Origin: an uncultured archaeon
GTDB lineage: Archaea > Asgardarchaeota > Heimdallarchaeia > Heimdallarchaeales > Kariarchaeaceae
DNA length: 41,417 bases
Assembly: GCA_964645535.1 (NCBI GenBank)
Contig: CAZYCQ010000029.1
Span: 1 to 41,417 of the forward strand
Reading direction: 5' to 3'
Shown: one piece after another, positions 378 to 29,629 of the stretch
Layout: each line of letters begins with the position of its first letter
How positions within the stretch are numbered: position 1 is the first letter of the stretch
Made by a program: the position numbers and the translations under genes
Notes under the pieces: generated by a model
Database searches by the model: none
Told to the model about the DNA's origin: nothing
Seen by the model: the letters and a program-made list of their open reading frames with translations, nothing else

Positions 378-977
378 TCATGTGAAGGTCAATATACGTT
401 TTGATAATTCTGGTCTTATTCCCTTCTTCTTAACTGAATCCTTTGCATACCCTAAAGGTAAGATAACCTGTGGTCTGAATACCTCTGGAATCTCTAGAAT
501 CTCATTTAGAAAGGTTTTGGGTTCTGGCGTGTAGGTGACTGTCGACAATCCCTCATATTCAGCCGCAAGAATCATGTAGCCAATGGATATCCAAGTACTT
601 TCAAGTGAATGACGATCCGCCCACTCTGAATTTTCAAACACCACCAACAGGACTGGCGCATCCGTGAGAAAACTCTTGGTTATACGGATGTCTTTCTTCT
701 GCACCCATTTCAAAAACTCATTGTCCTTGGATTTCCTCTTGTTCCGGTAGAATTCCCGTTCAACCGATTCTGCCCGTTTCCGGATCTCTGATTTGAGTTG
801 AGGGTTCGTGACCACCGCAATGAGGTAAGGGGATTTGTTTGAACCGGAAGGGGCATATATACCCGCTTGAATAATTCTCTCCACCTTAAGGGGATCGATG
901 CACTCCGTGGAATAATGCCGTGTTGTCCGTCGATTTTTCATCAGTTCATAGAGATCCGTCACTGTATTGCTTGTCAT
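378..977 (-). CDS. Nitroreductase family flavoprotein, iodotyrosine deiodinase-like
   Basis: RRTTRHY, APSGSNKSP and ESTWISIGYMILAAEYEGLSTVTYTP motifs. Start moved from 1187 to ATG 977 (MTSNTV) to fit the domain. Confidence 0.85.
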   Translation of the reverse strand: MTSNTVTDLYELMKNRRTTRHYSTECIDPLKVERIIQAGIYAPSGSNKSPYLIAVVTNPQLKSEIRKRAESVEREFYRNKRKSKDNEFLKWVQKKDIRITKSFLTDAPVLLVVFENSEWADRHSLESTWISIGYMILAAEYEGLSTVTYTPEPKTFLNEILEIPEVFRPQVILPLGYAKDSVKKKGIRPELSKRILTFT

Positions 978-1237
978 CCGGGATGTTAATAAATTGATGA
1001 TTTGACTAAAACTGTACCCCTCCATTGTTAAACATGGACTTCGATCCATAAAAAACTGCATTGGAGTGGATGACTGAAGGAAGTGCCTATGATGACTCCC
1101 CTGAAACCTTCCCGATGATTCCACCAACACCCGAACTTTTGCATCTGAACAAATTCGGATTTGTATGTCTCCTGAACATTCCACCACAAATCCAATTGCA
1201 TAGATGTCGGGAGTGGTTCAGTTCATCGTCCAATAAA

Positions 1238-1313: not shown

Positions 1314-1775
1314 ATGGAGAACCTTGACGAACTTGACACCATGATCATTCAGCAACTTATGCAGGATTCAAGAATTCAGTATCGGAAACTTGTTGAACTA
1401 ACTGGAAAATCACTCGGTACTGTGTCAAACAGAATACAACGACTTCAAGACCTTGGAATAATCAAACATTGGACTGTTCTTGTAGATCCCGAAAAGATCG
1501 GATTCGACCTCACCGTCCTCATAAATATACAGATCGATGTCAAATTTCTGGATACTGTCAATGAACATCTCTCCGGTATCCCTGAATTGGTCGCAATCTA
1601 CAACATCACTGGAGAGTTCGACATCACCGCAATTGCAAGAGTACGATCAAGAAGACACCTTGATGCTGTGATCCATAGAATTCTTGAAACTGATCACATC
1701 CGAAGAACCTCCTCTAACGTGGTTCTGAGAATCCTGAAAGAAAACTTCAGGCTTCAGATGGAGGAAAAGCAATGA
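1314..1775 (+). CDS. Lrp/AsnC family transcriptional regulator
   Basis: N-terminal LDELD...DSR HTH, VDPEKIG linker and C-terminal ITGEFD RAM domain. Confidence 0.93.
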   Translation: MENLDELDTMIIQQLMQDSRIQYRKLVELTGKSLGTVSNRIQRLQDLGIIKHWTVLVDPEKIGFDLTVLINIQIDVKFLDTVNEHLSGIPELVAIYNITGEFDITAIARVRSRRHLDAVIHRILETDHIRRTSSNVVLRILKENFRLQMEEKQ

Positions 1776-2947
1776 CCACAAAACTTGCATCATGGACTGA
1801 AAACATCGCAGAATCTGAAATCAGAAGACTCCTCAGAGTCCAAACAAAATATTACATGGCGGGAGGAAAACCCGGAAATCTTCCCCTCAAATGCTTCTCC
1901 ACCATCTTCAAACAGATTGCCGAAGAACTTCAATCCGAAAATGGAAACCACCTCCTCAATTATGGCCCCACCGAAGGAATACTGGAACTCCGAAAAATCC
2001 TGCAGGAACGACTCATGAAAAATGAAGGAGTTACCGGAAATGTACTCATCACAACAGGATCACAACAGACAATTTACTCAGTCCTCAAAACCATTGCAAA
2101 CCCCGGTGATGTAGTCATTGCACCCACTCCTACATATCTCGGTTTCATCGGACCATGCACCATCCTAGGAATCCGCATCATAACCGTCCCGATAAACCCG
2201 TGGGGAATCTCCATCGATGATCTTACCCATGCATACAACCACTCTCTCGCCAAATACCACAAAAAACCCGTCGCCATATACATGTCATCTTTTGCCGATA
2301 ACCCTACCGGATATACCCCCAGCTGGAAAAACAAAACTGATATCTACAACTTCGCCGTCTCACACAAAATCATCATTATTGAAGATAACGCCTACAAGGA
2401 AATAACATTCAATGAAAAAACCAAACCCATCAAATCAATCGACAAAGAAAATGAAAACGTAATATATCTCTGCACAACCTCTAAAGAAGCCGCTGTCCTG
2501 AGAATAGGATATTCCGTCATACCAGACCATATCAATGAAATGATCATCAAACTTAAAGGATATATGGATCTCTGCACAAGCTCCATAGATCAACATATGG
2601 CCGCAAAATACTATCGGAACCATATCGATAACATAATCCCAAAAATCAGAAAAATATACCAAAAACAACGAAACGCAATGATATCCGCACTCAATAAAGA
2701 AATAGGTACAAACCACTCAAACCCAAAAGGCGGATTCTTCGTATGGGCTAACCTCGGAATTCAAAATACAAAAAATATCCTTGATGAAGTAATCAAAGAA
2801 TGCAACCTCAGCTATGTACCTGGTGAAGCTTTTCTCATAAACAAAAAACCAACTGGATACGCCAGACTAAGCTATAGCTCCCTGAAACCAAACGATATAA
2901 AATATGGAATTGAAAAACTTGCTCAATTCATCAATAACAAAATCTGA
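1772..2947 (+). CDS. PLP-dependent aminotransferase class I/II (LysN/ARO8-like)
   Basis: YGPTEG, ITTGSQQ, NPTG, IIEDNAY, SK...LRIGY and GGFFVW motifs. ATGA overlap with lrp. Confidence 0.9.
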   Translation: MTTKLASWTENIAESEIRRLLRVQTKYYMAGGKPGNLPLKCFSTIFKQIAEELQSENGNHLLNYGPTEGILELRKILQERLMKNEGVTGNVLITTGSQQTIYSVLKTIANPGDVVIAPTPTYLGFIGPCTILGIRIITVPINPWGISIDDLTHAYNHSLAKYHKKPVAIYMSSFADNPTGYTPSWKNKTDIYNFAVSHKIIIIEDNAYKEITFNEKTKPIKSIDKENENVIYLCTTSKEAAVLRIGYSVIPDHINEMIIKLKGYMDLCTSSIDQHMAAKYYRNHIDNIIPKIRKIYQKQRNAMISALNKEIGTNHSNPKGGFFVWANLGIQNTKNILDEVIKECNLSYVPGEAFLINKKPTGYARLSYSSLKPNDIKYGIEKLAQFINNKI

Positions 2948-3018
2948 AGACCGATTATTGCAAAACCCTCCCAATCAAATGTATCTCCCCCTAGCACACG
3001 AGGGTGAAAAAACCCGGA

Positions 3019-3131
3019 TGGCGAGGACGGGATTTGAACCCGCGAGTGCGGAAGCACACTGGTTTTCAAGGTTCCTGTTTTTGCAGGAATTTTCAAGACC
3101 AGCCCCTTGGACCAGGCTTGGGTACCTCGCC
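3019..3131 (-). tRNA. tRNA-Ser(UGA) with a 27-nt intron at position 37/38 (3065-3091)
   Basis: Folds with acceptor stem GGCGAGG/CCTCGCC, anticodon stem CTGGT/ACCAG around loop CT-TGA-AA after intron removal, long variable arm GTGC-TTCC-GCAC, and T arm GCGGG-TTCAAAT-CCCGT. No CCA follows the discriminator base. Confidence 0.88.
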
Positions 3132-3240
3132 GTTCAATATTTTCAATTGATTTGATTTTTTTATGGTTTTGGATTGTTTCGCGTGTTGTGGCATTTCAGT
3201 TGATGGCAAGGTTCAAATTTTGGTTTATGGATAGTGATTC

Positions 3241-4761
3241 ATGGTTTTTTCAGGAGTTGCTGGGATTGAGAATTGTTTGCGTCAGATTTCAATTTCGTTG
3301 CGATTTGGGGATTCTGGTGTTGTTTCAGATTTGTTGATTCGTTTTCGTGATTTGATTCGGGTGTATTCTTTATCAGATTTGATTTCGGTATCGGAGAAGC
3401 TTGATTTTTTTTTCCATCTTCTTCCTCGAGTGAATGATTTGGTAAATCGAGTTGATGATTCTGTTCTTCGTTCCCGTTTGTTGTTGCAGGTTTATCATTT
3501 GGTACTTTTGATTTCTTCTTTTGGTCGTACGAATCCTGGTTGGCGTTTGTTTGGTGGTGCGAATATTCTTTCGAGTGTTCTTGTTGGTCTTCCTGATTGG
3601 GTTCCATGGATTGATGTTGAGGGTTTGATAGCAGATCGTCGTTTTGATGAGGTAAATGATTTTCGTTATTTTCTAACGATTTCGATGGGTGTCTATATTG
3701 AATGTATTTTGATGTTGGATTCAGTTGAATATTCTGAGTTGATTTCTTGGGCTTCTTCGGCATTTTTTTATGGGGATGAATATCTGAATTTTCTGGAGCG
3801 TATTGATTTTGGGGTGCTGGTAGTTTTTTCAGAGGATCCGTTATCTGTTTATCGGCAGTATTTGTTTCCGATGTGGAATCAGTTTGCCTTCATGCACAAT
3901 CTTTTGAGGATTTTTGGTGATCGTTGGCCCTCCGGGTTGGTTTCTCGATTTGGTCATGGCTGGGAGGGTGTATTGAAGTATATTGTGTACCTGAAGGGGC
4001 TTTTCATGGAGAAATTTTCGGAGTTGGCTGAAATTTCGGGATCTTTGATGTTGGATGTTCCTCTTGATGAATCCCCTCATGTTTTTCGCCTTCTTCTTCT
4101 GACGGATTTTCTTGAGATATACGAGGAGGAATTGAATCAATATCTTCAATCGGAACCGAACATGGATCGTTTGCGTCATCTTCTTTTGGAGATGCTTGAT
4201 CGATTGGTTGGTGCTGGTGGTGGTTTTGATATGTCTTCATCGTTTTGGACCTATTATTATGACATTTTTGATCTTCTTTTGGAGGTTGGCTGTCCTCCAG
4301 GAGTCACTGACATTGTGGAAAGCAATCGAGATCATCTTGTGTTGCTTTATTACAAGGCATTTCGGTTGGATGTTTTGAAAGGTGGCTCCTTTGATGGTGA
4401 AAAGGTTGATTTTTTGAAGGCAGGCATTCAGTATTCTCCTCATGCCTACATTGACGTATTGATTTTGGAGACTCTTCATCTTTTTGGTGTAGGGGATGAA
4501 ATTGGTTTTATGCAGATGGTTGACGAGGTGGAGAGGTTCGGGCACGCAAAATTGGTTTCTCCCTGCTTGGATTTGTTGAAGGCATATTGTGTCTATCTTC
4601 GGACGGGGAATGAGGTGCATTTTCCTCCTCTGTATGAAAATCCTTTTGATGCAAACAGTTGGCATTTTGACTATCGTGTTCGTAGCCATTTGGGTGTTCG
4701 TCGTTATTATCCCTTTGGCACTCGTCTTCTGAAGATCCAAGGCTTTCCGTTTTCTGATTGA
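3241..4761 (+). CDS. Hypothetical protein, probably alpha-helical
   Basis: 506-codon ORF with no recognised motif and strongly T/G-biased codons. Confidence 0.6.
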   Translation: MVFSGVAGIENCLRQISISLRFGDSGVVSDLLIRFRDLIRVYSLSDLISVSEKLDFFFHLLPRVNDLVNRVDDSVLRSRLLLQVYHLVLLISSFGRTNPGWRLFGGANILSSVLVGLPDWVPWIDVEGLIADRRFDEVNDFRYFLTISMGVYIECILMLDSVEYSELISWASSAFFYGDEYLNFLERIDFGVLVVFSEDPLSVYRQYLFPMWNQFAFMHNLLRIFGDRWPSGLVSRFGHGWEGVLKYIVYLKGLFMEKFSELAEISGSLMLDVPLDESPHVFRLLLLTDFLEIYEEELNQYLQSEPNMDRLRHLLLEMLDRLVGAGGGFDMSSSFWTYYYDIFDLLLEVGCPPGVTDIVESNRDHLVLLYYKAFRLDVLKGGSFDGEKVDFLKAGIQYSPHAYIDVLILETLHLFGVGDEIGFMQMVDEVERFGHAKLVSPCLDLLKAYCVYLRTGNEVHFPPLYENPFDANSWHFDYRVRSHLGVRRYYPFGTRLLKIQGFPFSD

Positions 4762-4974
4762 TGGAAATTAATGGTGGGTGGGTGTGAAAATTGATCCTCC
4801 TCGTCCACACATATGGCTTCATTGTCATGCTCTTTGTCAGATGTTTCATCATCGTGTCATCCCTTCATCCATATCCTTCGGTCTACAGTGCCTGTCAACC
4901 CCTACATTGGGTGCATAGGGTTGATTTTGGCTACGATTGGAACTCTTTCATTTAAACGGAAGGTTTATGGTTCT

Positions 4975-6498
4975 TCATAAATCAAGGTTTCCTAATTCGA
5001 TGGCACGCGAAACGGTTGCAAGGATGGAAATCATTGGATTTACACCTACAGCCGTTGGCAGGATGCTTCCATCAAGAACATAGACGCCTTTGTAATGGTG
5101 CATCTGTCCTGTTTCATCCACTACTCCGTTTTGTTTTGCCATTCTACAGGTTCCTAGGGGATGTGCACTGAAAAGGGAAACCCTATTTGGTTGGAAAGGA
5201 ATTTCTTTGATGATGCTTGCCTCCTGGATGTTCGTCAGTTTTAGGGATGGATTGACGAAGGGTCTTACCTCTTTGGCACCGGTTTTGAACATGATTCTGA
5301 CAGCTGCTTCAAGCCCCATTCTCATGTGTTTGAGATCTGTCGGCGATAATCGGTAACGAATGGAAGGCACCTTCTTGAAAGTTATTCTCCCGTTCTGTGT
5401 GTTGATTCCTCTTCTCCATCTGACCTCTCCATTGGTTTTACCGTCTGCTCCGTCTCTCACCAAGACGATAATGGCCGAGCTCTTGTAGAGCTTTTTGAGA
5501 CCTTCTCTTCGTTCTGACCCAATGGCCGGATAGTTCACTCCTGCAAGGAACACTTCCAGATCAGGTGATTCGAGCCAGTAGCCATATCCTGTTTCATCAA
5601 AATATTCTGCCGTTGCGCTTTGGGGAATTCCATATGTAGGATGAATGTCAGATTCAAACAACCCGATTGTCGCTGTAACTGGATGGACTGAAAGATTTTT
5701 CCCAACCTGTCCCCCTTTGGTCAATCCTGATTCTTGAAGGAGGAGTGGAGACATTATTGCACTTCCGCTGACGACAACTCTCTTTGCATTGAACCTCAAT
5801 GTTTGCCCTTTCATGGTTGCCTTGACGGTATGCCTGTCCTTGGCATCGGTAACGATTCTGTAGGCACGGGTAGATGTATAGGCATGGGTTCCCTGATCGA
5901 TGGCATCCTTCAGATATGTAAGACGCATATCCTGTTTTGCGTCATAAGGGCATCCAAGACCGCATCCTCCACACCCGATGCAGTCCTTTGAGTTATTTGG
6001 AAGAATGTCATGATGCATCTTGAGGGCTTTTGCTCCTTCGAGTATGATTCGATTGGCTGGACTGACGGCATAGTCCGGTACTTTATGAACATTCAACCTT
6101 TTCTCGACTGTATCGAAATGAGATTGCATGTTTTCTGGCAGGTATTCCTCAAGACCGAACCGATCAGCCCACTCTTTGAGCACCCAATCCGGTGTACGGA
6201 GGGATGTCATCCAATTGATTGTGGTGGATCCACCGAATGTCTTGCCTTGCAGGATCCGGAGTGACTGATCATCAGTTCCCAAAGAGGCATTCTGTCGATA
6301 GAGACGCGGCACCAGTTCTCGGGGATTCTGGTTGAAATCCTCTTTCGTAACATATTCTCCCTCTTCAAGAATAACGACGGAGTATCCTTGAGCTGAAAGT
6401 TTAGCAGCAGTGATTGCTCCTCCGCACCCAGACCCTATGATTATTACATCCGCAGAAATCTCTGTTGTTCCATCAAAATTTTCAGGAGTTGTAATCAC
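4975..6498 (-). CDS. GMC family oxidoreductase (long-chain fatty alcohol oxidase-like)
   Basis: IIGSGCGG FAD motif, GGSTTINW, CIGCGGCGLGC, SAHPLGTCRM and PTAVGVNPM. Confidence 0.9.
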   Translation of the reverse strand: MITTPENFDGTTEISADVIIIGSGCGGAITAAKLSAQGYSVVILEEGEYVTKEDFNQNPRELVPRLYRQNASLGTDDQSLRILQGKTFGGSTTINWMTSLRTPDWVLKEWADRFGLEEYLPENMQSHFDTVEKRLNVHKVPDYAVSPANRIILEGAKALKMHHDILPNNSKDCIGCGGCGLGCPYDAKQDMRLTYLKDAIDQGTHAYTSTRAYRIVTDAKDRHTVKATMKGQTLRFNAKRVVVSGSAIMSPLLLQESGLTKGGQVGKNLSVHPVTATIGLFESDIHPTYGIPQSATAEYFDETGYGYWLESPDLEVFLAGVNYPAIGSERREGLKKLYKSSAIIVLVRDGADGKTNGEVRWRRGINTQNGRITFKKVPSIRYRLSPTDLKHMRMGLEAAVRIMFKTGAKEVRPFVNPSLKLTNIQEASIIKEIPFQPNRVSLFSAHPLGTCRMAKQNGVVDETGQMHHYKGVYVLDGSILPTAVGVNPMISILATVSRAIELGNLDL

Positions 6499-6956
6499 GC
6501 CGTTTCACCTCCTGCAAGCGGTGAATCTGGATAAAATGTCTTGGAAAGCAATGTAGGTGTCTCTTTCTCCCTTCCCAACGTTTTTCCAAGATGCCCGACC
6601 TCTGCTCCATGTTCCTCATTGGAATAATAGGTCCATCCACAAAGGGATCTTAGGGCTGTGAACCCTGTTCTGAGCAGGGGGATTTTGCTTGTGCCCCAGC
6701 CTTTTGCGTACCTGACTCTCTGATCAAGAGACAGGTTTTCAAAGGACTTGAACCTCCCTGTCCTCAGAAAGACCATAATCGGAGATCCGAAAAGCGAGAT
6801 CAATGTTTTGATGTCCTTAATAAGGAAATCGTCCAAAAGTCCTACATACCTATCCATTTCTTGGACGAAATCCTCTCCCAAATCTTCTGGGGGAATTCCT
6901 AGAAATGCCTCACCAATCGCAATTAGCCGTCGTCGGTGCTTCTCATCGAATACCAT
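6495..6956 (-). CDS. Small partner of the GMC enzyme (gluconate 2-dehydrogenase subunit 3-like / FAO N-terminal-like)
   Basis: FENLSLDQR...W..S...LLRTGFTALRSL....YY pattern. 4-bp overlap with the GMC gene. Confidence 0.7.
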   Translation of the reverse strand: MVFDEKHRRRLIAIGEAFLGIPPEDLGEDFVQEMDRYVGLLDDFLIKDIKTLISLFGSPIMVFLRTGRFKSFENLSLDQRVRYAKGWGTSKIPLLRTGFTALRSLCGWTYYSNEEHGAEVGHLGKTLGREKETPTLLSKTFYPDSPLAGGETA

Positions 6957-7114
6957 TACCTGTTGGTGAAAATTTTAGTATTTTAGCCTTGGGTGGCAAT
7001 TTTGGATATTCTTGAAGTTTTATTCCCTGATATGCCAGATTATTTTCTCAATTATGGAACAATTCAATAGCATTGCAACCCAATGACTAAAAACAGTAGA
7101 TCTTTTGTCAAGCT

Positions 7115-8362
7115 ATGGATCGTAGGGTGTCATACTCGATCTCATTATTTATTCACATTGTTTTTGCAATGCTTTTTCGAGACTATGTAGATACATATGT
7201 GTTTTTAGAGACAGCAGAAGATATCTTGATCTTTGGCACTCCTTTCTATACAGACACGGGTTTTCATGCACTATTCAATTATTTTCCCCTCGCATTCTTT
7301 CCAATCTTGATTGGTCCGTTTCTCTATTTTTTCCTCAACCTCAATAATCTTATGCTCCAACGACTATTTCTGAAAATTCCTTTTATTTTGGGAGATCTGG
7401 TTCTTGCTTGGTTATTGTACAAGTATTCAGGTAACAATCCTCATATCGAACAGCTAATGTTGTTTAACCCCTTGCTTATCTATATAAGTGCAATCAAGGG
7501 ACAGTTCGATGTGCTAGTGGCAATCTGTGTAGTCATGCACTGGAGGGCATTAACACAGGGGGCTTATTTGAAATCAGGATTTTGGGCGAGCATTGCTTTT
7601 CTTCTAAAAATTCATGGTGGCTTTCTCCCTTTTTTTGTCTTTGTTTTTCTCTTGCCTCATCAACCGAAACAGGCTTTGCGTATGGCTGGGGCAGCATTGG
7701 TGACTTTAGTTGCAGTCCTCCTGCCATTTGCATTAATTGATCTGGATGGAATGATCTCGCATGCAATTCTTTACCATGTTTCACGTCCTCCAAACGGCTT
7801 TTCTTTGACGGGCATGTTGTATGGTGCGTTTAACTTCCTTTTTCCAGGCTCCGTACTCGTCAATGTATTGATCTTCGTCAGTACAGGAGTTTTACTTTGG
7901 ACTTTGGTATACACATCCATTGAGGTGTTCAGGCTAGGCCAAAGAAAAACAGATCCCCATCAAATTCTTCCTTTTGTCATTAGATTTTTCATCCTGTTTT
8001 TCCTGTTTAACAAAGTCTTTTGGCTACAATATGCAATAGTGCCATTGGCGATTTACTTTCTTCAAGACCGAAATTGGAACGAAAGGCAGTTGAAACAGGC
8101 ACTTTATTGGTCTATTCTCTTCATACCAATTGCTGCAATATTTAGATTGATTGAAATGGTTCCTCCTGATCTTCGAAACTTTCTCGGTGAGTCCTGGATT
8201 TCCATCCTCTGGGTCAGCTTCGTAATGTTGCACTTTATTGGTCTTTTAGCTTTTCTGAAAGCTATTGAATGGACCCGACGCTCAAAATTACTTTATGCAG
8301 TATTCTTGCTTCTTTTGCCGATTCATTATTTTCTTAATCTTACACTTGCTCCTTATCGGTGA
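7115..8362 (+). CDS. GT-C fold membrane glycosyltransferase (GT87/PIG-M-like)
   Basis: Polytopic. Early acidic DYVD loop, then FNYFP, LKIPFILGDL, FNPLLIYISAIKGQFD and NKVFWLQY. Confidence 0.75.
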   Translation: MDRRVSYSISLFIHIVFAMLFRDYVDTYVFLETAEDILIFGTPFYTDTGFHALFNYFPLAFFPILIGPFLYFFLNLNNLMLQRLFLKIPFILGDLVLAWLLYKYSGNNPHIEQLMLFNPLLIYISAIKGQFDVLVAICVVMHWRALTQGAYLKSGFWASIAFLLKIHGGFLPFFVFVFLLPHQPKQALRMAGAALVTLVAVLLPFALIDLDGMISHAILYHVSRPPNGFSLTGMLYGAFNFLFPGSVLVNVLIFVSTGVLLWTLVYTSIEVFRLGQRKTDPHQILPFVIRFFILFFLFNKVFWLQYAIVPLAIYFLQDRNWNERQLKQALYWSILFIPIAAIFRLIEMVPPDLRNFLGESWISILWVSFVMLHFIGLLAFLKAIEWTRRSKLLYAVFLLLLPIHYFLNLTLAPYR

Positions 8363-8449
8363 AAATCCGTCTCTTTTTGCTCTCGAGTCACGACCTCCTG
8401 TCGGAATTTCCTCCATAAATTTCAGTTCATTCATTTGCAAAATTGAAAT

Positions 8450-11227
8450 TTATTGCGTCTGTTGGCTTTCTTCCAATTCAAAATCTCTGATGATCTCTCC
8501 TCTCCGTATGATTTTTAATGGAGCTGCCACAATCTCTCCTTCAACATGGTTGAATTGCGTGAATGTCACCGCGATTTTGTCTCCTAATTCAACAATGATT
8601 TCGATAGGCTCCTCCTTATCATCTGAAGATGTCTTTAGAAGTTCCTTGTAGTTCTCCGGTGTGATTTCGGTGTTCATGTCAAATTTGGAGCGAGAACCAA
8701 CAAAACACATACTTTCAAAATCATCGACAAATGTGGGTCTATCCGTGAACCTTCGCAATGGAATCCGTGCTTCAATTCCATTCGGCAACAGGACATTGAC
8801 CCCTCCAGAGAAAATGGATGACACAATTCCCAGTCTGTTCTGTAGGCTTTCGTTTTTGGCGATGAAAGAGTACCCTGCCGCCACAATCTGCTTTTCAATT
8901 TTTGATGCCAGTACAGACTGTTCTGTCGAATGATCTGCCAAATTCTCGATTTCTTCGGCCATATATACGTAATCTGGTTTTTCCTCTTCCTTATGCCAGT
9001 TTCCATCGTTTCGACCTTCTGCAATCAATTGCTTGCAGATTCTATGGGCGATGATGTCCGGATATCTCCGTATGGGTGATGTGAAATGTACATACCTTAT
9101 GCTTCCCAAACCGAAATGACCGATATTGGCTGCCGAATAGAATGCTTGGGGGAAAACTCGAAGCACTAAAAGGTAGGACAGCCGTTGAATATCCTCCTCA
9201 TCAAGGTTTGCAATCTTGTCCAACACCTTGATAAATGGTTCGAGGACCTCCTGTTGCTTTTCAAAGGGAAGTTGGGCGAGCCCTTTTGCCAAGGGTGTCC
9301 CTAAATCCACTTCTTCTTCCTCATCCTCCTCTTCAATTGAACCTTTGATGATGTCCCCAAATGAAGCCCCTCCCCCGAAAGAAAAGGTAATCGGTCCCTT
9401 TGAACCTCCTCCCTGCTGTTTTAGCATCTCAAGCAGAGCTTCCCCGTCTTCCTCTTCCTCCTCTTCTTCCTCTTCGAACAGCTTTTCAGGAAAATCAATT
9501 TCAAGAGGGAGACCAATCACTTTCATCTGTCCATTGAATTTAACTGCATTTTCCTTTTCAGGAAGTGGATGGTCACGATAGATGGCAGGAACCTTTGCCC
9601 TATGAAAGATTTCTCCTATTGCTTCATTTGCAGAAACCATGAATGTTTCAATCATCTTGGTGGATGGAGATGATTCCTTGATTGATATCGACATTTTCTT
9701 GCCCAATGCCAACTTCACTTCAGGAGTTTCCAGATGGAGGCTTCTCCGGTGCTGGTCAATCAAGGTTGCCAACTTGTGGTAGGTGACAAACGGTTGTTCT
9801 CCTCTCTCTATCGCCTCATTGACATAATCATAAGAAAGATTTTTCTTCACCAAAATTACTGAATTGTGAACCTTTTCACTTCCTTCCACCTTCTTGCCGT
9901 TCTTATCGAAATGAATTTCCACAGACATCGCCAACCGAGGCACCTGTTCCCTAAGAGAACATAAATCATCAGAAAGCCTCTTTGGAAGCATTGGAAGAAC
10001 CGCAGTGGGCAGGTAAACGCTGGTTGCCCGTTTTTGGGCATGCAGATCCAACCTTGAATGCTTTTCCACATAATGTGCCACATCTGCAATGTGAACCCAC
10101 AGCTCGTATCCATCTTCCTTTTCAATTACAGAGACAGCATCATCAAAGTCTTTTGCCGTGGGTGGGTCAATGGTATATGCCTCCATCTGTTGCAGATCCA
10201 ACCGCCCTTCAAAGACTTCTGGCGTTTCTTTAGGTTCTTTGAACCGTTGGGCATACTCCTCTATCTCCTCCGGTGTTTCCCATTCAAAGTCAGGAGCTAG
10301 GTTGATCGCTCGTTTGGAAATCTTGAGAAGCGCATCATTCTCTCCCCAATATCCGGTTCGGATGAGGAATTTCACAAAGGAATCTGCTACTGTGGTTCTC
10401 CCTTCATCAATCCAATCTTCTGCGAGATAGGTGATAAATTTGTGAATTGAGAAATCCTCTATTTCGGTAACTCGTGTATTTCCTAATCCAATTGGAGGCC
10501 AAGTATCATATTCCACAAAATGATCCATCATCGACTGTATCTTCTTGACCAACTCTTCCTCTTCCTCAGTGAACCTTATTTTATGCCAAGGTAATGGTTT
10601 TCTGACGGTTATGGTTTCTCCATCTTCAGTTTCCTCTTCAACATAGTGGAACATCTTGTTTCTGATACGTCCCAGATCCCCAATCTCTCTATTGATTGCC
10701 TTCTTCTCCTCCTCGGTCAGAATCTTCCAGATCTGTCTTTTGGTGTCCACTAAATACAGATGACCAATCGCTGGTGAGGCAACGGGATTGAGAACTTCTT
10801 TTATCTTTTTCACCTTGTTTTTTGAGACCTCTTCCTTACCATACCATACCTTCGCGATTTCCTCAATTGTGAATTCGGTCTTACCTTCCTTAATCAGAAG
10901 TTGCCAAAGCCTCTTCTCGGTCAGTTGCCCTCCCGTTGCGGATCCGGATTCTCCCCTTTCTTTTGCAATCTCCTTGATCCATTGATTGAGCCTTTGTCTC
11001 ATTTCTTTTTCAGGTGGAAGCTGACCGTTCTTCAATTGTACAGATCTTCCAAAAGTAGATTTGTAGACATTGCTCTGCTTGAGCTCTTGCATTCCTCTAA
11101 GGGTATAAAGTGTAATGATGACTCCTTTCTTCCTTTTACTGCTTCTGACAAAAATCCCAAAATTATTCGGTGCTTGGATACCAAATAATCCCGGTTTGAA
11201 TTCTACTAACTCTCCCTTTGATGGCAT
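8450..11227 (-). CDS. RNase II/RNase R family (RNB domain) exoribonuclease
   Basis: TIDPPTAKDFDDA catalytic motif, VHIADV, RATSVYLP, HFGLG and HFTSPIRRYPD. Confidence 0.93.
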   Translation of the reverse strand: MPSKGELVEFKPGLFGIQAPNNFGIFVRSSKRKKGVIITLYTLRGMQELKQSNVYKSTFGRSVQLKNGQLPPEKEMRQRLNQWIKEIAKERGESGSATGGQLTEKRLWQLLIKEGKTEFTIEEIAKVWYGKEEVSKNKVKKIKEVLNPVASPAIGHLYLVDTKRQIWKILTEEEKKAINREIGDLGRIRNKMFHYVEEETEDGETITVRKPLPWHKIRFTEEEEELVKKIQSMMDHFVEYDTWPPIGLGNTRVTEIEDFSIHKFITYLAEDWIDEGRTTVADSFVKFLIRTGYWGENDALLKISKRAINLAPDFEWETPEEIEEYAQRFKEPKETPEVFEGRLDLQQMEAYTIDPPTAKDFDDAVSVIEKEDGYELWVHIADVAHYVEKHSRLDLHAQKRATSVYLPTAVLPMLPKRLSDDLCSLREQVPRLAMSVEIHFDKNGKKVEGSEKVHNSVILVKKNLSYDYVNEAIERGEQPFVTYHKLATLIDQHRRSLHLETPEVKLALGKKMSISIKESSPSTKMIETFMVSANEAIGEIFHRAKVPAIYRDHPLPEKENAVKFNGQMKVIGLPLEIDFPEKLFEEEEEEEEEDGEALLEMLKQQGGGSKGPITFSFGGGASFGDIIKGSIEEEDEEEEVDLGTPLAKGLAQLPFEKQQEVLEPFIKVLDKIANLDEEDIQRLSYLLVLRVFPQAFYSAANIGHFGLGSIRYVHFTSPIRRYPDIIAHRICKQLIAEGRNDGNWHKEEEKPDYVYMAEEIENLADHSTEQSVLASKIEKQIVAAGYSFIAKNESLQNRLGIVSSIFSGGVNVLLPNGIEARIPLRRFTDRPTFVDDFESMCFVGSRSKFDMNTEITPENYKELLKTSSDDKEEPIEIIVELGDKIAVTFTQFNHVEGEIVAAPLKIIRRGEIIRDFELEESQQTQ

Positions 11228-12177: not shown

Positions 12178-12867
12178 ATGGTACTTTCGGATTTTTTAAA
12201 TGGATTGCAGCGCATTTTCACGGGTGACCCTGAAATTTGGGGAATTGCCCTGCTAAGCATAATTGTCTCAGGAACTGCTGTTTCATTGGCGTCACTCATT
12301 GGCATCCCACTCGGAATTTGGATGGGTCGATCCCGAAGAATGAACGGAATCATCCCGACAACTGTGCTGAATACCTTGATGGGGCTACCTCCTGTGCTTA
12401 TCGGATTGGTTGTGTTTTTGATTCTCGCTTCTGAAGGACCGTTGGGAAGCTTACAATTGATCTTCACTCCAATGGCAATGGTCATCGCCCAATTCGTTTT
12501 GACTTTGCCCATCGTGGTAGGACTTACCAAATCAGCCATCGCGAATCTTCCTGAAGAGCTTCCCGCGCTTCTAAAAACCCTAGGTGCAAGCCAAGTGCAA
12601 TTACGCGCAGAAATATGGAAAGAGGCACGTGCTGGCATTATCATCGGGGTAATCACCGCTTTGGGAAGAGCCTTCTCTGAAGTAGGCGCTGTGTTGATTG
12701 TTGGTGGAAATCTCAAAGGATATACTAGAATACTGACCACCGCAATCGTTACAGAAACCTCCAAAGGAAACTATGGTGTCTCCTTGGCATTGGGAACCCT
12801 TCTTTTCTCGATCAGCTTAATCCTGACTGGTACCGTCACATTTTTGCAGATTAGATTGACGAAATGA
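12178..12867 (+). CDS. tupB: Tungstate ABC transporter permease
   Basis: GLPPVLIGL, GRAFSEVGAVLIVGGN and TRILTTAI. Confidence 0.92.
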   Translation: MVLSDFLNGLQRIFTGDPEIWGIALLSIIVSGTAVSLASLIGIPLGIWMGRSRRMNGIIPTTVLNTLMGLPPVLIGLVVFLILASEGPLGSLQLIFTPMAMVIAQFVLTLPIVVGLTKSAIANLPEELPALLKTLGASQVQLRAEIWKEARAGIIIGVITALGRAFSEVGAVLIVGGNLKGYTRILTTAIVTETSKGNYGVSLALGTLLFSISLILTGTVTFLQIRLTK

Positions 12868-12910
12868 GTAGGAATCCTTTATTAGGAAAATACTGTATAG
12901 GGTATGGAAT

Positions 12911-13144
12911 ATGGTAAAAGCTTATATCTTCATCAAATGCATGGCGGGTGACTTTGAACCTGTCAAGAAGCAAATACAGGCCATCCCTGAAATCACTTCC
13001 TGTACTAGGCTGATGGAGGCTTTTGACTTTGTCTGTACAATTGAGGTACAAAACAGCAAGATGCTCCGGCCAATAGTTACATCAAAGATCAGAACAATTC
13101 CTGAAGTTATCGAAACCATGACCATAATCTGCGTTTCACCATGA
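12911..13144 (+). CDS. Stand-alone Lrp/AsnC ligand-binding (RAM) domain protein
   Basis: MVKAYIFI...FD...IRTIPEVIETMT, 77 aa, no HTH. Confidence 0.8.
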   Translation: MVKAYIFIKCMAGDFEPVKKQIQAIPEITSCTRLMEAFDFVCTIEVQNSKMLRPIVTSKIRTIPEVIETMTIICVSP

Positions 13145-18432: not shown

Positions 18433-19230
18433 GTGAAACTATTCCGTAGCAGACAATCGGCATCGAACATTGTGGCAACCATGCTGATTTTCACAATGAT
18501 GGTCGTTGCAATGTCTCTTCTCTACTCAAGAATATCTCCATCTCTTATCGGCTATGAGGCTGAAACCAACGCAAATAATCAAGAATTCATTTTCCTCAAT
18601 ATCGAAACTCAGGTGACAAGACTTGCCACCCTCCCTCCAGGAAGTATCGCCACTGTTGATATCCTTTCCAGAGGGGCGGTATACGATGTCATCGATGGAA
18701 AAAATGTATCCATCGGAATTACTGGACGAAACAATACTGTTTTTGCAACTCCCTTCGGAATGTTCAAGGCAAGCCTAGATAAGCAATATCAAAGCGTATC
18801 CACAAGTCATTACCTTGAAGACGGGATCGAAGAAAATACCATGTTTATCAACGATTCTGTTGAAAATTTCGTCTTCGGCGTCTCAAAGGTAGATATCGAG
18901 ATTGGAAATGCCACCTATTGGCAATATTTCCGCGGCAAAATTGACTTGGTGCAGTTGGGCGGCACCTACTCTCTGAATATCTTCGTTTACCGAATTATGG
19001 CTGATCCAACAGATTTCCCACTCTTGCAATCGCAATGGGTTCTCAGACTTAGGAGAGGTGATCCCACCATCACTTCCAGAGTCATTCAAGCTGATGTCAA
19101 TGGCTTACGAATCAATCAGACTGCAACACATACAACTGATCCTCTCCTGACTTATTCCTTAAATGCCATTCCAGATGGAACCTTTGTGAATGTCAATTTT
19201 ATTGAGATTCCAATTTATTATGAGACTTAA
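18433..19230 (+). CDS. Archaeal type IV pilin-like protein with class III signal peptide
   Basis: Short basic N-terminus RSRQSA followed by SNIVATMLIFTMMVVAMSLLY, then a beta-rich body. Confidence 0.6.
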   Translation: MKLFRSRQSASNIVATMLIFTMMVVAMSLLYSRISPSLIGYEAETNANNQEFIFLNIETQVTRLATLPPGSIATVDILSRGAVYDVIDGKNVSIGITGRNNTVFATPFGMFKASLDKQYQSVSTSHYLEDGIEENTMFINDSVENFVFGVSKVDIEIGNATYWQYFRGKIDLVQLGGTYSLNIFVYRIMADPTDFPLLQSQWVLRLRRGDPTITSRVIQADVNGLRINQTATHTTDPLLTYSLNAIPDGTFVNVNFIEIPIYYET

Positions 19231-20134
19231 AATGATCCCATCCCCTACAATCCAAAGATATGCCATCAAAAACAGTTTTCCCTTCCACAAGCTTGCCAAT
19301 GGTCAACGCCTCCCCTATGTCCTCTTCTGAAATGAAGACAATTCCATATTCCTCTCCCCCATAGAACACCTCTTCAAGAAAGTTCTCGGTTTCAATCGCA
19401 TTCGTTCGAACTGCCTTGGCATCAATTTCTACTCCCAAGCCTGTTCCCTCCACCAAAGAACATAATGTGAGTGCTAATCCATCACTACAATCCATGCTTG
19501 CCTTGATGTGTCTTTTTCGATGTATCGACACAAAATCAAGCTGAGGTTTCAGTTGATAAAAATATGGCTCAATTAAGTCCTTTAATTCCTTTTCTGAATG
19601 GTTTTTTCTTAGCAATTTTTTCAGGGCAACAGCAGAGCTTCCAAAAGGGGGCCCCAACCAATATACCTTGTCCCCTTTCCGTAATTCTGCCGAATGCCTC
19701 GGTATCACTTTATCCTTGGCAAAACCATTGACTGCCACATCAATCACAACAGTTCCTCCTACATTGAGATCCCCTCCATGAAACTTAGCTCCTGCATCCC
19801 TGCATGCTCTAGATATGCCTTCAAGAATCTGAAGAGAATCTTCCACTAAGAAATTCCGCGGAAAGGTAAATGACACAATCGTTTGGATGGGTGTGGCTCC
19901 TTTGGCAATGACATCGCTCATCGCCGCCACACAGGCCTTATATCCCACCCAAAACCATGGCATGTCTGGAGGTCTGTCACTATCTGGAATGAAGCCATCG
20001 ATATTGGATACAAGAACCCCCTTTTCCACTGATACCGCAAATGAATCATCATCTGTCGAAAGTAAGTCTGCCGGATCTACGAACTTCCTTGCCTTTTTTA
20101 TCCATTCCCGCTCCGAAATTTCACCTATCTTCAT
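19199..20134 (-). CDS. thiL: Thiamine-monophosphate kinase
   Basis: DDD, GYKA....SDVIAKGA, GGDL, MDCSDGL, GGEEY and RGWDHF. Confidence 0.9.
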   Translation of the reverse strand: MKIGEISEREWIKKARKFVDPADLLSTDDDSFAVSVEKGVLVSNIDGFIPDSDRPPDMPWFWVGYKACVAAMSDVIAKGATPIQTIVSFTFPRNFLVEDSLQILEGISRACRDAGAKFHGGDLNVGGTVVIDVAVNGFAKDKVIPRHSAELRKGDKVYWLGPPFGSSAVALKKLLRKNHSEKELKDLIEPYFYQLKPQLDFVSIHRKRHIKASMDCSDGLALTLCSLVEGTGLGVEIDAKAVRTNAIETENFLEEVFYGGEEYGIVFISEEDIGEALTIGKLVEGKTVFDGISLDCRGWDHFKSHNKLESQ

Positions 20135-20142
20135 TTCGTCAC

Positions 20143-21270
20143 CTATGTGCAAATTAAATCTAGCTTGTCAGTTCGAACCGCATCTTCAACTTCCATCGCA
20201 ATTCTGTCTCCATAGCTAATACTTTCCAAATAGAGATACCCTGTATAGGGGGTGAATTGAGTTCCTGGCGAACCTGGTATCCTTAAGGATGCGTCAAAGA
20301 TAACAATATCCTCTTTCCCCTCTTCAGGAACCACCGCTCCTTGTAATCCGAAAGGTCCGATGATCCCCCTTCCATCAAGTTTCTTGGTTGCTGCTACGAA
20401 CTTCTCCCCCATGGCCATTGCCTTCTCTATGATACTCTCCTTGATGGTAACTGTGTAATGCCCAGTTTCAATGATCTTTGGTCGAATCATGCCCTTAATC
20501 TGAAGCTGCTGCTCTGCAGGTAACCTCAGTATTCCATCCAGATTTGTCTGTCTACGTGTGTCCGTTCCCATGAACTCCAATTCATCAGAAATCGGTGAAT
20601 AAAAATAATTGAAATTCACCTGTGCACCCAATACAAATTCCTCTATTACTGCCTCCTGCAATGCTTTCTCAGTAATAATCCCCTTCTCCATCATTTCCTT
20701 GCTCTTCGTCTGATAGCTTTCATAATCATGCACATAAAAAAATGCCCGTTCATAGCCCCTCAATGCCTCGTTTGCCTTGACGATACAAAGACGATCAATC
20801 TTTCGTGGATCCTCAAAAATTTTGGGGATTCTGATCTCTGCTTCCTGTAGAAGATGATATTGGTTATATGGCAGATCCCGTTCCTCAAGCTTCAACATGG
20901 ATCGAGAGCCAATAATGGGTACGGCAAACTCATTTTCAATCTTATTGAAATCACAGTAAACCCAAAAGTAACGATTATGCACAAACAAGGCATTCAGTTC
21001 TCTCAGCTTTTCTTGGACTTCTTCATTCACGACATCCGCAAATCTGTCCAGAACAATCACTTCATCCACAATTCCCTTTCCGCTCCGTCTCCTGTAGTAT
21101 TTGCTATAGGTCTTCTCTCTTCCCTTTTGAGCAACTACCAAGGTACGAAACCCTCTGCGTTTTGCTCCTCTGCATACATCCAATGCAGAATGGCCTCCAA
21201 GAACCGCGATAGTTAAATCTTCTTGGTTGTAGTTTTCCAGAATTTCCTTTATTCTCTTTTCATCAATCAT
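20143..21270 (-). CDS. purP: PurP family ATP-grasp protein (PurP-like paralogue)
   Basis: [24 protein letters not shown] and GPFGLQ. Confidence 0.85.
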
Positions 21271-22286
21271 TCAACCACCTCTTCAAACCTTCCCTGCTCC
21301 AAAGCTTCGCGTATCTCCAAAGCAATTCTTCTTCCCGTTGACATCGGCACGTCATACCGTAACCAAGTGTACGGGCTTCCATTGATGTATGGATTGGTGC
21401 CTGCCACAATCCTTGCAGAAATTTCAAAAGTGACGATTTCCCCCTCATCTGTCACAATCGTCTCAAGACAGAATGGACCATAAAGTCCACGGGACGTTAT
21501 CTCTCTGCTAGCTTCCACAACCTTTTCTCCCATTTCAAGAATGCGTGGTAGATAAGATTCCCTGACCACCAAGGGAATGTTTCCCATAACAAGATATGAC
21601 GGTGATATCCTCATTTCCATCTGATCTGATGACGGAATCCTGCCAAGCGCATCCACGTTGGTCTCATACCGCCTGTCAAAGCTCATGAGTTCAGTTTCAT
21701 CATTCAGGATGGAATGGAAGTAATGTATGTACAGTGGATTGCCCATGATATATTCCTGAATGACAAACCGTGTATCTCCGACTTGGCTTGCCTGATTGTC
21801 GTACTTCCGATGGAATTCCTCTTCCGACTTGGCAAAAAAATATCCCTTGCCACCTCCTGCACCAAAAAACTTGACAATTACAGGTCTATCAATCTTGTCC
21901 GGAGATTCAAAAGTGATTGGCATCCGTAAGCCTGCCTTCTGTAACCATTCTCTTTCCATCTGACGATCCGATTCCCAATCTAAGATTGCCTTATGTCCGA
22001 AATATGGCACTCTGAGCTTTTTGACCCTTTCCACGCCCATATAGGCAATAAACGATCCATGGGGGACCAAAACTGCATTCAGATCTATCAGTTCCTGCTC
22101 CAATCCCTCAAACTCTTCCAAACTGTCTACTGATATTATTTTGTCAGCCACCTTGAACTGTCGATATGGCTTCTCATTTCCCTTCCTGCAAATCGCTATG
22201 GTCTCGAACCCTTCATCCTTAGCTCCTTTAAGTATCTGTAGGGCAGAATGCGATGCAATGGTTGCTATTCTTACGTCAGAAGGCAT
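21267..22286 (-). CDS. purP: Formate--phosphoribosylaminoimidazolecarboxamide ligase
   Basis: [35 protein letters not shown] and MSTGRRIA. Confidence 0.93.
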
Positions 22287-22368
22287 TTAACCTGAAGAAA
22301 AATTGAACCTAAAGAAAAGTTTTGGTCAAAAACTCACTAAAAGTTGACTGATATTGATATTGAATGAT

Positions 22369-22674
22369 TTAACCGAACAGACTTCCCAATCCAAGGTCTG
22401 CTTCGTCGATTTCCTCTTCTTCCTCTTCCTCTTCCTGCTTTTCCTCTTCGGCAGTTTCGGTGGTGGCACCGCCTGCCGCAGCAGGTGCAGCAGCAACCAT
22501 TGCAGCTGATGCGAGTGCCTCATCAATATCAACGCCCATCAGAGCAGCCACAAGGGACTTGACTCTGTTTGCGTCAACACTGACACCTGCAGCCTCAAGG
22601 ACAGCAGTCAGATTCTCTTCACTGATTTCTTTTCCAGCTTTGTGTAGAAGTAAAGCAGCATATAGGTATTCCAT
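22369..22674 (-). CDS. rpl12p: 50S ribosomal stalk protein P1 (aL12)
   Basis: [11 protein letters not shown], Ala-rich hinge, acidic tail and GLGSLFG. Confidence 0.97.
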
Positions 22675-22694: not shown

Positions 22695-23645
22695 TTAACC
22701 GAAGAGACTGCCAAGACCAAGATCGGCCTCATCAATCTCTTCCTCTTCTTCCTCTTCCTCGGCCTCTTCAGCCTCGGTTTCGGAAGCAGTATTCTCCGTT
22801 GCAGTGACTGCGACTGCACTTGCCATTTCCTTAAGCTCATCAGATAGGGTATTCTCGTCAATACCCACCAAGACACGTGCCAAAGCGAGAACTTTCGCCT
22901 GTGCAGAGGCAAGCACGCTTTCGGCTGTATCTGGGGTAACATAGCCGATTTCTGCCGCCAAATTGAGAGCCTGTCGGTGCGCAGTTGCCAACATGCCGGG
23001 ATAGTCCTTTGCCAGTTCTTCCTTGTCAATCAGGATTCCACCGCTCAAGGCCACCTCCAGTTCCAGACCGACCTCGAAAGGTGTCAGACCTAGCCTGTTG
23101 AGAATGACTGCCAAGGCCTTGTTGACCCTTTCGCCTTCCTTAACAACAACCGTGTCGTTTGGAATGGCGATGGTTCCCCTCTCTATACGGGTGGGAAGAC
23201 CTACGGCATTCAGCTCACTGATGAAGGTGCCCGGAGGAACACCTGTGTTCATCTTTGGAACCAGGACATCTTTGGGTGCAATCTGTCCCGGACGAGCTGC
23301 GGCAGGAACCTTATTCTTTGCTAAATATTGTGCAATCTCAAATGGACTGCCATTGGCGAACAAAAAGGCCGCATTTCCCGAAATGTACTCTTTCAGAGCC
23401 TGAACGTTTTCAACATCGTCCTTGACCCGATCAATGGCCAGCTTCATGAGCGTGTTCTTTGCCATCTTCAAGGAAGAACCCCTTTCCCTCAAATCCCTCC
23501 TGATTTGGTGGACTGAGGTCTCACTCATGGGTTCCATCTTGACAATGCCGATGACCGAGTATTTCTTCAAATTCTCAACAAGATAGTCGAGCGTAACCGC
23601 CTTTTTGGGACGGCTTGACTTCTTCTGCGATATGACGACGCTCAT
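22695..23645 (-). CDS. rpl10: 50S ribosomal protein P0 (uL10)
   Basis: [25 protein letters not shown] and acidic tail GLGSLFG. Confidence 0.96.
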
Positions 23646-24295: not shown

Positions 24296-24302
24296 TGTTT
24301 GT

Positions 24303-24354
24303 CACCTCCTGCTCCTGAATCATAAATTCAGTCTACGCAGGTTTTCTGTAGACG
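24303..24354 (-). promoter_or_regulatory. rpl1 5' leader with a kink-turn overlapping the Shine-Dalgarno
   Basis: CCUGC-GUA-GA-CUGAAU-UUAUG-AUUCAG-GA-GCAGG followed by AGGUGA. Confidence 0.65.
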
Positions 24355-24618
24355 AAAAGTAAGCCTAGAATAGACTCACCTTACACATCAATGTTGATGC
24401 CAACTTTTTTAAATATGATGAAGCATCACGCTCCTCTCCCTGCCCTCCATTCCTTACCTTAAATTGCAAAATAAACCTGAATAGGGCTGTTGAAGCCTGT
24501 TCGTTCTAAGAATCCATGTCTGAGACTTCGATGCCTATAACCTCCTTTTGTTCTCTCTGCGTGTTCTTTAATCACTGCGTAATCAAAAAGCTTAAGTAGT
24601 TTTTTTTTTCTACAATTC

Positions 24619-25050: not shown

Positions 25051-25061
25051 GGTGAAATGAA

Positions 25062-28601: not shown

Positions 28602-28629
28602 GTTGAAACGACGGTAGGATGTAATCAGC

Positions 28630-29624: not shown

Positions 29625-29629
29625 ATACT

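Follow-up and report, generated by a model that had tools for sequence, protein, structure and literature searches.

Local strand asymmetry is a record of how DNA is copied, transcribed and repaired, and several of its described forms share features with the locus considered here. Around mammalian transcription start sites and CpG-island promoters, an excess of C>T and A>G is found on one strand, is limited to the first 1-2 kb, and reverses its direction upstream of bidirectional promoters, with an unresolved choice between bidirectional transcription and bidirectional replication initiation (Polak, Querfurth & Arndt 2010, PMC2927911). Eukaryotic tRNA loci are hotspots of transcription-associated mutagenesis, where excess transitions extending into the flanks are attributed to exposure of the non-template strand (Thornlow et al. 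2018, PMC6130373). In vertebrate mitochondria, the heavy strand is G/T-rich and the light strand A/C-rich, an asymmetry attributed to the time spent single-stranded during strand-displacement replication: the same pair of transitions affects the exposed strand, the gradient follows the distance from the start point, and silent-site skews are of a size comparable to those reported below. A review of the subject is available (PMC3269012). Finally, bacterial and archaeal replication origins show a switch from an A/C-rich to a G/T-rich top strand that is independent of gene orientation.

A switch of this last polarity occurs at a tRNA-Ser gene in a 41,417-nt stretch (hereafter the window) of contig C29 of a Heimdallarchaeia MAG of 3.6 Mb. 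A preliminary description proposed it as a candidate replication origin or a focus of strand-asymmetric mutation. The flip is real, but it is not the chromosome's replication origin: it is the strongest case of a few-kilobase, one-strand mutation footprint found around nearly every tRNA gene of this archaeon. In the literature searched, no paper was found describing a two-armed footprint of this size anchored on tRNA genes as a class.

Strand skew on both sides of tRNA-Ser(UGA)

Sliding windows and change-point analysis of the + strand keto skew, (G+T-A-C)/N, give -0.298 for positions 1765-3015, +0.449 for 3147-3829, +0.289 for 3830-4786 and +0.083 for 4787-8688, with a cumulative minimum at 3015, 4 nt from the tRNA 3' end. 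As the SD of 1-kb windows genome-wide is 0.074, and the 0.1 and 99.9 percentiles are -0.339 and +0.350, the right arm lies beyond the 99.9th percentile and the left arm beyond the 1st. The flip lies inside tRNA-Ser(UGA), at 3019-3131 on the minus strand, which carries a 27-nt intron at position 37/38 and was identified by Rfam (RF00005, 44.7 bits, full length) and by ARAGORN with introns allowed, whereas default ARAGORN missed it.

The left, A/C-rich arm is formed by a class I/II PLP aminotransferase gene (gene 1, 1772-2947, + strand; PF00155, E 7.5e-36), which points toward the tRNA, and whose coding strand has a keto skew of -0.29, reaching -0.50 at third positions and -0.56 at fourfold-degenerate sites, against a background of -0.07 +/- 0.14. 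The right, G/T-rich arm is formed by gene 2 (3241-4761, + strand), which points away from the tRNA and encodes a 506-aa protein with no Pfam or NCBIfam match; it is nevertheless a real gene, with paralogues of about 520 aa and 27-29% identity in the congener G001 and weaker ones in 5 other genomes. Its skew is +0.62 at third positions and +0.52 at fourfold sites. The non-coding spacers follow the same skew: 2948-3018, downstream of the tRNA and containing its T6 terminator read on the minus strand, has a keto skew of -0.32, and 3132-3240, upstream of the tRNA and containing the promoter region, has +0.45 (T 49%, C 8%). At the outer fringe of the left arm, an Lrp/AsnC-type regulator gene (1299-1775, + strand; PF01037 and PF13412) is mildly A/C-rich (keto -0.11, third positions -0.16), while the weak tail at 4787-8688 spans a GMC oxidoreductase gene on the minus strand (+ strand fourfold skew +0.20) and two unnamed ORFs.

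The observation made in the preliminary description is thus confirmed, including the location of both ORFs on the + strand, with one correction: the bias does not simply fade over 1.5-2 kb on each side, as the left arm ends abruptly at 1765, the start of gene 1, and the right arm drops at 4787 but leaves a weak tail to about 8.7 kb.

The bias is absent from related genes located elsewhere; a bias shared by orthologues regardless of location and a skew within the genome-wide background had both been set beforehand as refutations, and neither is observed. Eleven orthologues of gene 1 have fourfold skews of -0.34 to +0.09, and homologues of gene 2 have -0.02 to +0.13. Protein composition is also affected: residues with A/C codons make up 34% of the gene 1 product against 28% in orthologues, and residues with G/T codons make up 42% of the gene 2 product against 28-32% in homologues. 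Gene 1 has no orthologue in its own genus, a search for related loci returned no relative of it, and neither gene was found next to tRNA-Ser in relatives, which prevents codon-by-codon polarization at this locus; amino-acid changes at conserved columns of gene 1 were too few to show a direction.

Recurrence around tRNA genes and among relatives

Does this flip mark a unique site? About 93% of the roughly 41 credible tRNA genes of the MAG show it: on the sense strand, 93% are A/C-rich just upstream and 93% G/T-rich just downstream, with means of -0.25 and +0.14, respectively. About 24 of 44 ARAGORN calls touch an island with |keto| > 0.22, and the present locus ranks first in amplitude (0.348). 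The flip lies inside the gene body, and the skew is already maximal in the first 20-25 bp on each side, including the promoter (-0.26 to -0.32 in this genome, about 0 in the congener G003, and -0.10 to -0.20 in G012+G018, two further genomes compared), running without a gap up to the tRNA 5' edge. It is gone by about 6 kb upstream and 10 kb downstream. It is independent of the orientation of flanking genes, which show no excess pointing away from the tRNA and do not avoid the head-on orientation. On the strand running 5'>3' away from the tRNA, T is +0.066, G +0.037, A -0.054 and C -0.050 relative to the genome, with GC content preserved; trinucleotide asymmetries are roughly the product of single-base skews, with no TC/CC-type hotspot of the kind expected from an APOBEC/AID- or TadA-like deaminase.

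No footprint was found at the RNase P RNA, SRP RNA or Orc1/Cdc6 loci, although RNase P and SRP RNA are only two controls and are probably transcribed far less than tRNAs; rRNA operons are absent from this MAG. CRISPR arrays show the same polarity in 8 of 8 flanks, but weakly. Among islands that lack a tRNA, 16 internal ones gave no Rfam hit at E <= 0.1, seven others lie at contig ends with the polarity expected for a focus just off the end, and one, on contig C9, is an amino-acid-composition artefact due to a Pro/Ser-rich protein next to a membrane protein. The islands do not represent a repeated mobile family, as their ORFs share no similarity. Amplitude correlates neither with the length of the contig nor with distance to a contig end, and only weakly with cognate codon usage (rho 0.29, p 0.08).

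The trait is graded among relatives, with an amplitude of 0.163 here, 0.096 and 0.093 in the congeners G001 and G002, and 0.008 in G003, which has the same tRNA set. Growth temperature, using tRNA G+C as a proxy, does not explain this distribution, since G018 has 65% and no footprint. Candidate genes gave nothing clear either: RNase HI was not found in any of the five genomes tested, EndoV was not found in any of the four genomes of this genus, and dCMP-type deaminase genes number two in genomes both with and without the footprint. UDG is present in all six genomes with some signal and was not found in the two with none, but G012 has two copies and almost no footprint.

Candidate processes behind the footprint

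What the analysis establishes is that, on both sides of almost every tRNA gene, the strand running 5'>3' away from the gene has gained T and G and lost C and A, which amounts to net C>T and A>G on that strand, with a maximum at the gene edge, a decay over a few kb, and no dependence on the direction of neighbouring protein genes. The effect is mutational rather than selective, being strongest at fourfold sites, present in spacers, and absent from orthologues of gene 1 and homologues of gene 2. The process itself is inferred from sequence composition alone: it would start at tRNA genes and move outward in both directions, either leaving the outward strand repeatedly single-stranded, so that C and A deaminate, or resynthesizing it with an error-prone polymerase that makes G.T mispairs. 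The preferred trigger is an RNA:DNA hybrid (R-loop) at the heavily transcribed, GC-rich tRNA gene, which would allow local unwinding or short-range, abortive DNA synthesis, origin-like in polarity but repeated at every tRNA gene. This reading remains tentative (probability of roughly 0.4): R-loops, single-stranded DNA and DNA synthesis at these genes have no direct support, no archaeal mechanism is known that starts DNA synthesis at tRNA genes, the stronger upstream arm has no clear explanation in this view, the abrupt steps at gene borders (1765, 4787) need an extra assumption, such as unequal residence time or constraint between genes, the candidate genes do not account for the distribution among relatives, and the weak correlation with codon usage fits any transcription-dependent model, including plain transcription-associated mutagenesis. 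A more far-reaching possibility, rather unlikely but not excluded, is that in some Heimdall-group Asgard archaea tRNA genes are sites where DNA unwinding or synthesis starts and proceeds outward in both directions, primed by R-loops or tRNA transcripts, which would be an undescribed, lineage-variable mode of origin-independent DNA synthesis, with the kb-scale mirror skew as its fossil record.

The main rival, less likely, is transcription-associated mutagenesis by RNA polymerase itself, with tRNA promoters firing in both directions to give sense read-through downstream and antisense transcripts upstream, so that the non-template, outward strand is exposed and deaminates on each side. The polarity fits such hypothetical outward transcripts on both sides (for gene 1's own transcription it is reversed), tRNA genes are the most heavily transcribed single-copy loci, the tRNA's own T6 terminator could explain why the downstream arm is weaker than the upstream one, and ribosomal-protein genes, analysed with a + strand ORF chain, show a small shift (only about +0.1) toward a G/T-rich coding strand relative to G003. 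However, the skew does not drop after T>=6, T>=7 or T>=8 runs more than at distance-matched controls (p 0.2-0.9), although the outward strand carries 5.7 T5+ runs per kb and oligo-T runs are archaeal termination signals, a comparison that is not decisive since oligo-T termination in vivo is context-dependent. Furthermore, there is no skew-free zone between the tRNA and a putative antisense start site, the downstream arm at this locus is strong (-0.30) despite a T6 terminator 7 nt after the gene, flanking genes do not avoid the head-on orientation, and RNase P and SRP RNA genes show nothing. Coding strands in general are slightly A/C-rich at fourfold sites (-0.07), the opposite of strong generic transcription-associated mutagenesis. 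Break resection at tRNA genes and fork stalling with lagging-template exposure are rejected on polarity, as each predicts the opposite sign, an argument that rests on reasoning rather than on computation.

Replication origins account less well for the data. That tRNA genes are regularly used origins or restart sites, in a multi-origin, eukaryote-like mode of replication that would make the skew an ordinary leading/lagging-strand asymmetry, appears improbable: the polarity and the independence from gene orientation would fit, and at silent sites in G002 the A/C-rich domain to the left of tRNA-Thr spans at least 20 kb, longer than expected for a purely local process, but in the present genome the skew decays to zero within 6-10 kb although neighbouring tRNAs are tens of kb apart, while replicative skew should persist to the termination zones, its amplitude is far above any skew at the Orc1/Cdc6 loci, and G003 has none of it. 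A single origin, or one of a few canonical origins, at this locus is very unlikely despite the sharp, origin-like switch, being contradicted by the recurrence at about 40 tRNA genes; the effect is also confined to a few kb, the three Cdc6_C matches lie on contigs C50 (two) and C12, none being on C29, and only three short two-copy repeats of 13-15 nt at 80-86% identity, none ORB-like, were found in 2700-3500. The interpretation given in the preliminary description is therefore partly supported, as a focus of strand-asymmetric mutation holds whereas a single replication origin does not, and its softer idea of a local initiation or unwinding site at a tRNA gene remains viable but applies to tRNA genes as a class. 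Also very unlikely is a by-product of the amino-acid or codon composition of these two genes, of foreign DNA integrated at the tRNA, or of a chimeric assembly join, even though amino-acid composition can mimic the signal, as on C9, tRNA genes are integration sites, and gene 1 lacks an orthologue in its genus. The flanks encode a nitroreductase, an AsnC regulator, an aminotransferase and a GMC oxidoreductase, with no integrase, and the tRNA 3' 25-mer is unique in the window at up to 3 mismatches. A misassembly junction is unlikely, because the intact intron-containing tRNA spans the flip and the independently assembled G001 and G002 show the same polarity; contamination is 1% and no anticodon is duplicated.

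Consequences and comparison with described asymmetries

The mutational force is strong enough to shift silent sites to about 78% G/T or A/C and to change the amino-acid make-up of neighbouring proteins, which will bias phylogenies, codon-usage analyses and HGT detection for genes next to tRNAs. As the trait differs between species of one genus, comparative genomics can look for the responsible gene. In practice, skew-based origin prediction in such genomes will give false origins at tRNA genes.

Compared with mammalian start sites, the anchor here is the tRNA gene of an archaeon with a single RNA polymerase, and the amplitude is far larger (fourfold skew about 0.5), overriding protein-gene orientation, rewriting protein composition, and not being stopped by terminator-like T runs. 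The effect at eukaryotic tRNA loci is analysed within 20-40 bp flanks, peaks 12-15 nt upstream, and is described as elevated rate and divergence, not as a kb-scale mirror-image compositional skew. In contrast with the mitochondrial asymmetry, the present one is two-armed and repeated about 40 times in a 3.6-Mb chromosome, each arm being only a few kb long. Finally, unlike the switch at bacterial and archaeal replication origins, it does not extend across replichores, is not next to orc1/cdc6, has no ORB repeats, and occurs at about 40 sites per genome.

The tRNA-Ser(UGA) locus and its strand skew

The locus belongs to contig C29 of a 3.62-Mb MAG in 176 contigs, with 41% GC, 89% completeness and 1% contamination. 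From left to right, it comprises genes for a nitroreductase (378-1187, minus strand), an Lrp/AsnC regulator (1299-1775, + strand) and a class I/II aminotransferase (gene 1; 1772-2947, + strand), a tRNA-Ser(UGA) gene with a 27-nt intron (3019-3131, minus strand) followed by a T6 terminator, a 506-aa protein of unknown family (gene 2; 3241-4761, + strand), and a GMC oxidoreductase (4975-6498, minus strand). Gene calls rely on a crude ORF chain, but gene 2 is a genuine gene: two tandem paralogues of about 520 aa exist in a congener, and weaker relatives in five other genomes.

The A/C-rich to G/T-rich switch reported at this tRNA in the preliminary description was confirmed. Change-point analysis of the + strand keto skew, (G+T-A-C)/N, gives -0.298 for 1765-3015, +0.449 for 3147-3829, +0.289 for 3830-4786 and +0.083 for 4787-8688, with the cumulative minimum at 3015, 4 nt from the tRNA 3' end, while the genome-wide SD of 1-kb windows is 0.074. 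Fourfold-degenerate sites reach -0.56 in gene 1 and +0.52 in gene 2, against a background of -0.07 +/- 0.14, whereas first and second codon positions are shifted less, and the non-coding spacers follow the same skew (-0.32 and +0.45). As both genes are on the + strand, coding direction cannot be the cause, as had been argued from the sequence alone. Two other compositional anomalies of the window are of a different type: at 28,500-31,500, GC is 50% with an AT skew up to +0.28 (purine-rich), and at 19,000-22,500 the GC skew is about -0.25 with almost no AT skew.

The skew is not a property of the genes themselves. Eleven orthologues of the aminotransferase (41-48% identity) have fourfold skews of -0.34 to +0.09, and five homologues of gene 2 have skews of -0.02 to +0.13. 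The pressure has altered the proteins as well: residues with A/C-only codons (KNTPQH) make up 34% of gene 1, against 28% in orthologues, corresponding to the 98th percentile of the proteome, and residues with G/T-only codons (FLVGWC) make up 42% of gene 2, against 28-32% in homologues. Gene 2 also carries a T9 run (3404-3412) and several T6-T7 runs inside its reading frame on the coding strand, a by-product of the skew that may cause premature termination of its own mRNA.

A footprint anchored on tRNA genes

The flip is not unique to this locus. About 56 islands with |keto| > 0.22 cover roughly 74 kb of the genome, their ORFs are unrelated to each other, and wherever two islands of opposite sign adjoin, the order is A/C-rich then G/T-rich. 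With introns allowed, ARAGORN finds 44 tRNAs, of which about 41 are credible, and about 24 touch an island. On the tRNA sense strand, the first 250 bp upstream have a mean keto skew of -0.25 (93% of tRNAs negative), and the first 250 bp downstream a mean of +0.14 (93% positive). The flip occurs within the gene body, and the skew is already maximal in the adjacent 20-25 bp; upstream it is gone by about 6 kb, while downstream it is weaker but lasts to about 10 kb, and beyond that it is zero. The tRNA-Ser of the window has the largest amplitude of all (0.348). Of the 29 islands without a tRNA, seven lie at contig ends with the polarity expected for a focus just beyond the end, and 16 internal ones have no Rfam hit and look like peaks inside broader one-signed zones. 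One island, on contig C9 (positions 1473-2763 of the stretch 23101-26800), shows a clean mirror flip (-0.30 to +0.32) with no tRNA, but it is caused by a Pro/Ser-rich low-complexity ORF next to a PAP2-like membrane ORF, and is thus an amino-acid-composition artefact that mimics the tRNA footprint.

The orientation of the flanking genes does not matter: after subtracting the coding-strand baseline, the fourfold excess is about the same for genes pointing toward the tRNA and away from it, and there is no surplus of genes pointing away. In this assembly, which contains no rRNA genes, the flip is not seen at the RNase P RNA and SRP RNA genes, nor at the three Orc1/Cdc6 loci. On contig C50 (8000-17400), the SRP RNA (12765-13080) lies between two Orc1/Cdc6 genes, which makes this a likely canonical origin region, yet no keto flip occurs there, and the nearby tRNA-Arg(CCU) at 6506 has one of the weakest footprints in the genome. 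Eight CRISPR-like arrays, all at contig ends (C33, C35, C54, C58, C69 with two, C74 and C115), show the tRNA-type polarity in 8 of 8 flanks, but weakly (|keto| about 0.05-0.15) and without a peak at the array.

Amplitude correlates only weakly with cognate codon usage (rho 0.29, p 0.08). Both transitions are involved, as T and G rise and A and C fall on the outward strand (running 5'>3' away from the tRNA) with GC content preserved, and trinucleotide asymmetries are roughly multiplicative, so that no enzyme-like hotspot motif appears. Oligo-T runs, which terminate archaeal transcription, occur 5.7 times per kb (T5+) on the outward strand, but the skew does not fall after T>=6 to T>=8 runs more than at distance-matched controls. 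The skew is also continuous through the promoter-proximal 60 bp (-0.26 to -0.32 in this genome, about 0 in the congener G003, and -0.10 to -0.20 in two other genomes).

Graded distribution among relatives

Amplitude, taken as half the right-minus-left keto difference over 1-kb flanks, is 0.163 in this genome (G000), 0.096 (p 4e-5) and 0.093 (p 2e-6) in the congeners G001 and G002, and 0.008 in the congener G003, a 10-contig assembly; in the other relatives G015, G008, G012 and G018, it is 0.062, 0.046, 0.019 and 0.004, respectively. These relatives were sampled at 10-25 tRNAs each, and are not phylogenetically independent. The syntenic tRNA-Thr(UGU) shows the footprint in both G000 and G002, while the corresponding G003 stretch, which has no tRNA, is flat. 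In G002 (contig C61, 6000-34640), fourfold sites of + strand genes (the ribosomal-protein cluster and its neighbours) are A/C-rich (-0.2 to -0.5) for at least 20 kb to the left of tRNA-Thr/tRNA-Ser, whereas the footprint spans about 8 kb in the syntenic region of G000; the true range at silent sites may therefore be underestimated, although a codon-usage baseline effect in G002 is not excluded. A 4.8-kb contig of G001 (C162, 1-4847) carries five tRNA genes with no flanking skew, unlike most other G001 tRNAs, and may be a tRNA array from a mobile element or a mis-binned contig.

tRNA G+C, a proxy for growth temperature, does not track the trait. ARAGORN-called tRNA introns are longer in G000 (mean 28 nt, up to 62 nt in tRNA-His) than in G003 (mean 12 nt). 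Among candidate genes, only UDG co-varies loosely with the footprint: a UDG-family gene (PF03167; C41, 14720-15157 in G000) is found in the six genomes with some footprint (G000, G001, G002, G008, G012 and G015), and was not found in the two with an amplitude near 0 (G003 and G018), but G012 has two copies and almost no footprint, so this is only a weak lead.

Possible mechanisms and related strand asymmetries

How could such a footprint arise? What the analysis establishes is a net C>T and A>G bias on the strand that runs 5'>3' away from the tRNA, on both sides, decaying with distance; composition reflects a long-term equilibrium, and cannot show whether the process is still active, and the process itself is inferred. 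Three kinds of outward-moving process would give this polarity: an RNA polymerase exposing the non-template strand, a replication fork exposing the lagging-strand template, or displacement or repair synthesis, which either leaves the displaced or nascent outward strand single-stranded or fills it with G.T misincorporations. Break resection, and fork stalling with lagging-template exposure, predict the opposite sign and are rejected on this basis. The preliminary interpretation, a candidate replication origin or a focus of strand-asymmetric mutation, is only partly supported: the latter holds, whereas the data disfavour a canonical origin on number, range, the absence of Orc1/Cdc6 nearby and the absence of ORB repeats.

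Between the two remaining possibilities, we lean tentatively (with a probability of about 0.42) toward a DNA-level outward process nucleated at the tRNA gene, probably by an R-loop, rather than plain outward transcription. This preference rests on the insensitivity of the skew to T-runs, its continuity through the promoter, the strong downstream arm at this locus despite a terminator 7 nt after the gene, the lack of avoidance of head-on gene orientation, and the silence of RNase P and SRP RNA. None of these arguments is decisive, and the asymmetry between the upstream and downstream arms is easier to explain by transcription; transcription-associated mutagenesis, although doubtful, is the main alternative. 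That tRNA genes act as true origins is unlikely, a by-product of gene content or assembly is very unlikely, and a single chromosomal origin at this locus is the least likely of all, the remaining weight being left to something not considered here.

Full-text literature searches and targeted consultation of four papers, including PMC2927911 and PMC6130373, turned up no description of a kb-scale mirror skew anchored on tRNA genes. Local strand-asymmetric mutational footprints are already known, and what appears to be new here is a footprint of this size anchored on tRNA genes; the phenomenon would be categorically new only if the DNA-synthesis reading proves right. The closest analogues are the asymmetries at mammalian start sites, which involve the same substitutions over the same 1-2 kb scale, with a reversal upstream of bidirectional promoters and the same ambiguity between transcription and replication (PMC2927911), and transcription-associated mutagenesis at eukaryotic tRNA loci, which acts over tens of bp (PMC6130373), together with mitochondrial strand-displacement asymmetry and the skew switches of replication origins.
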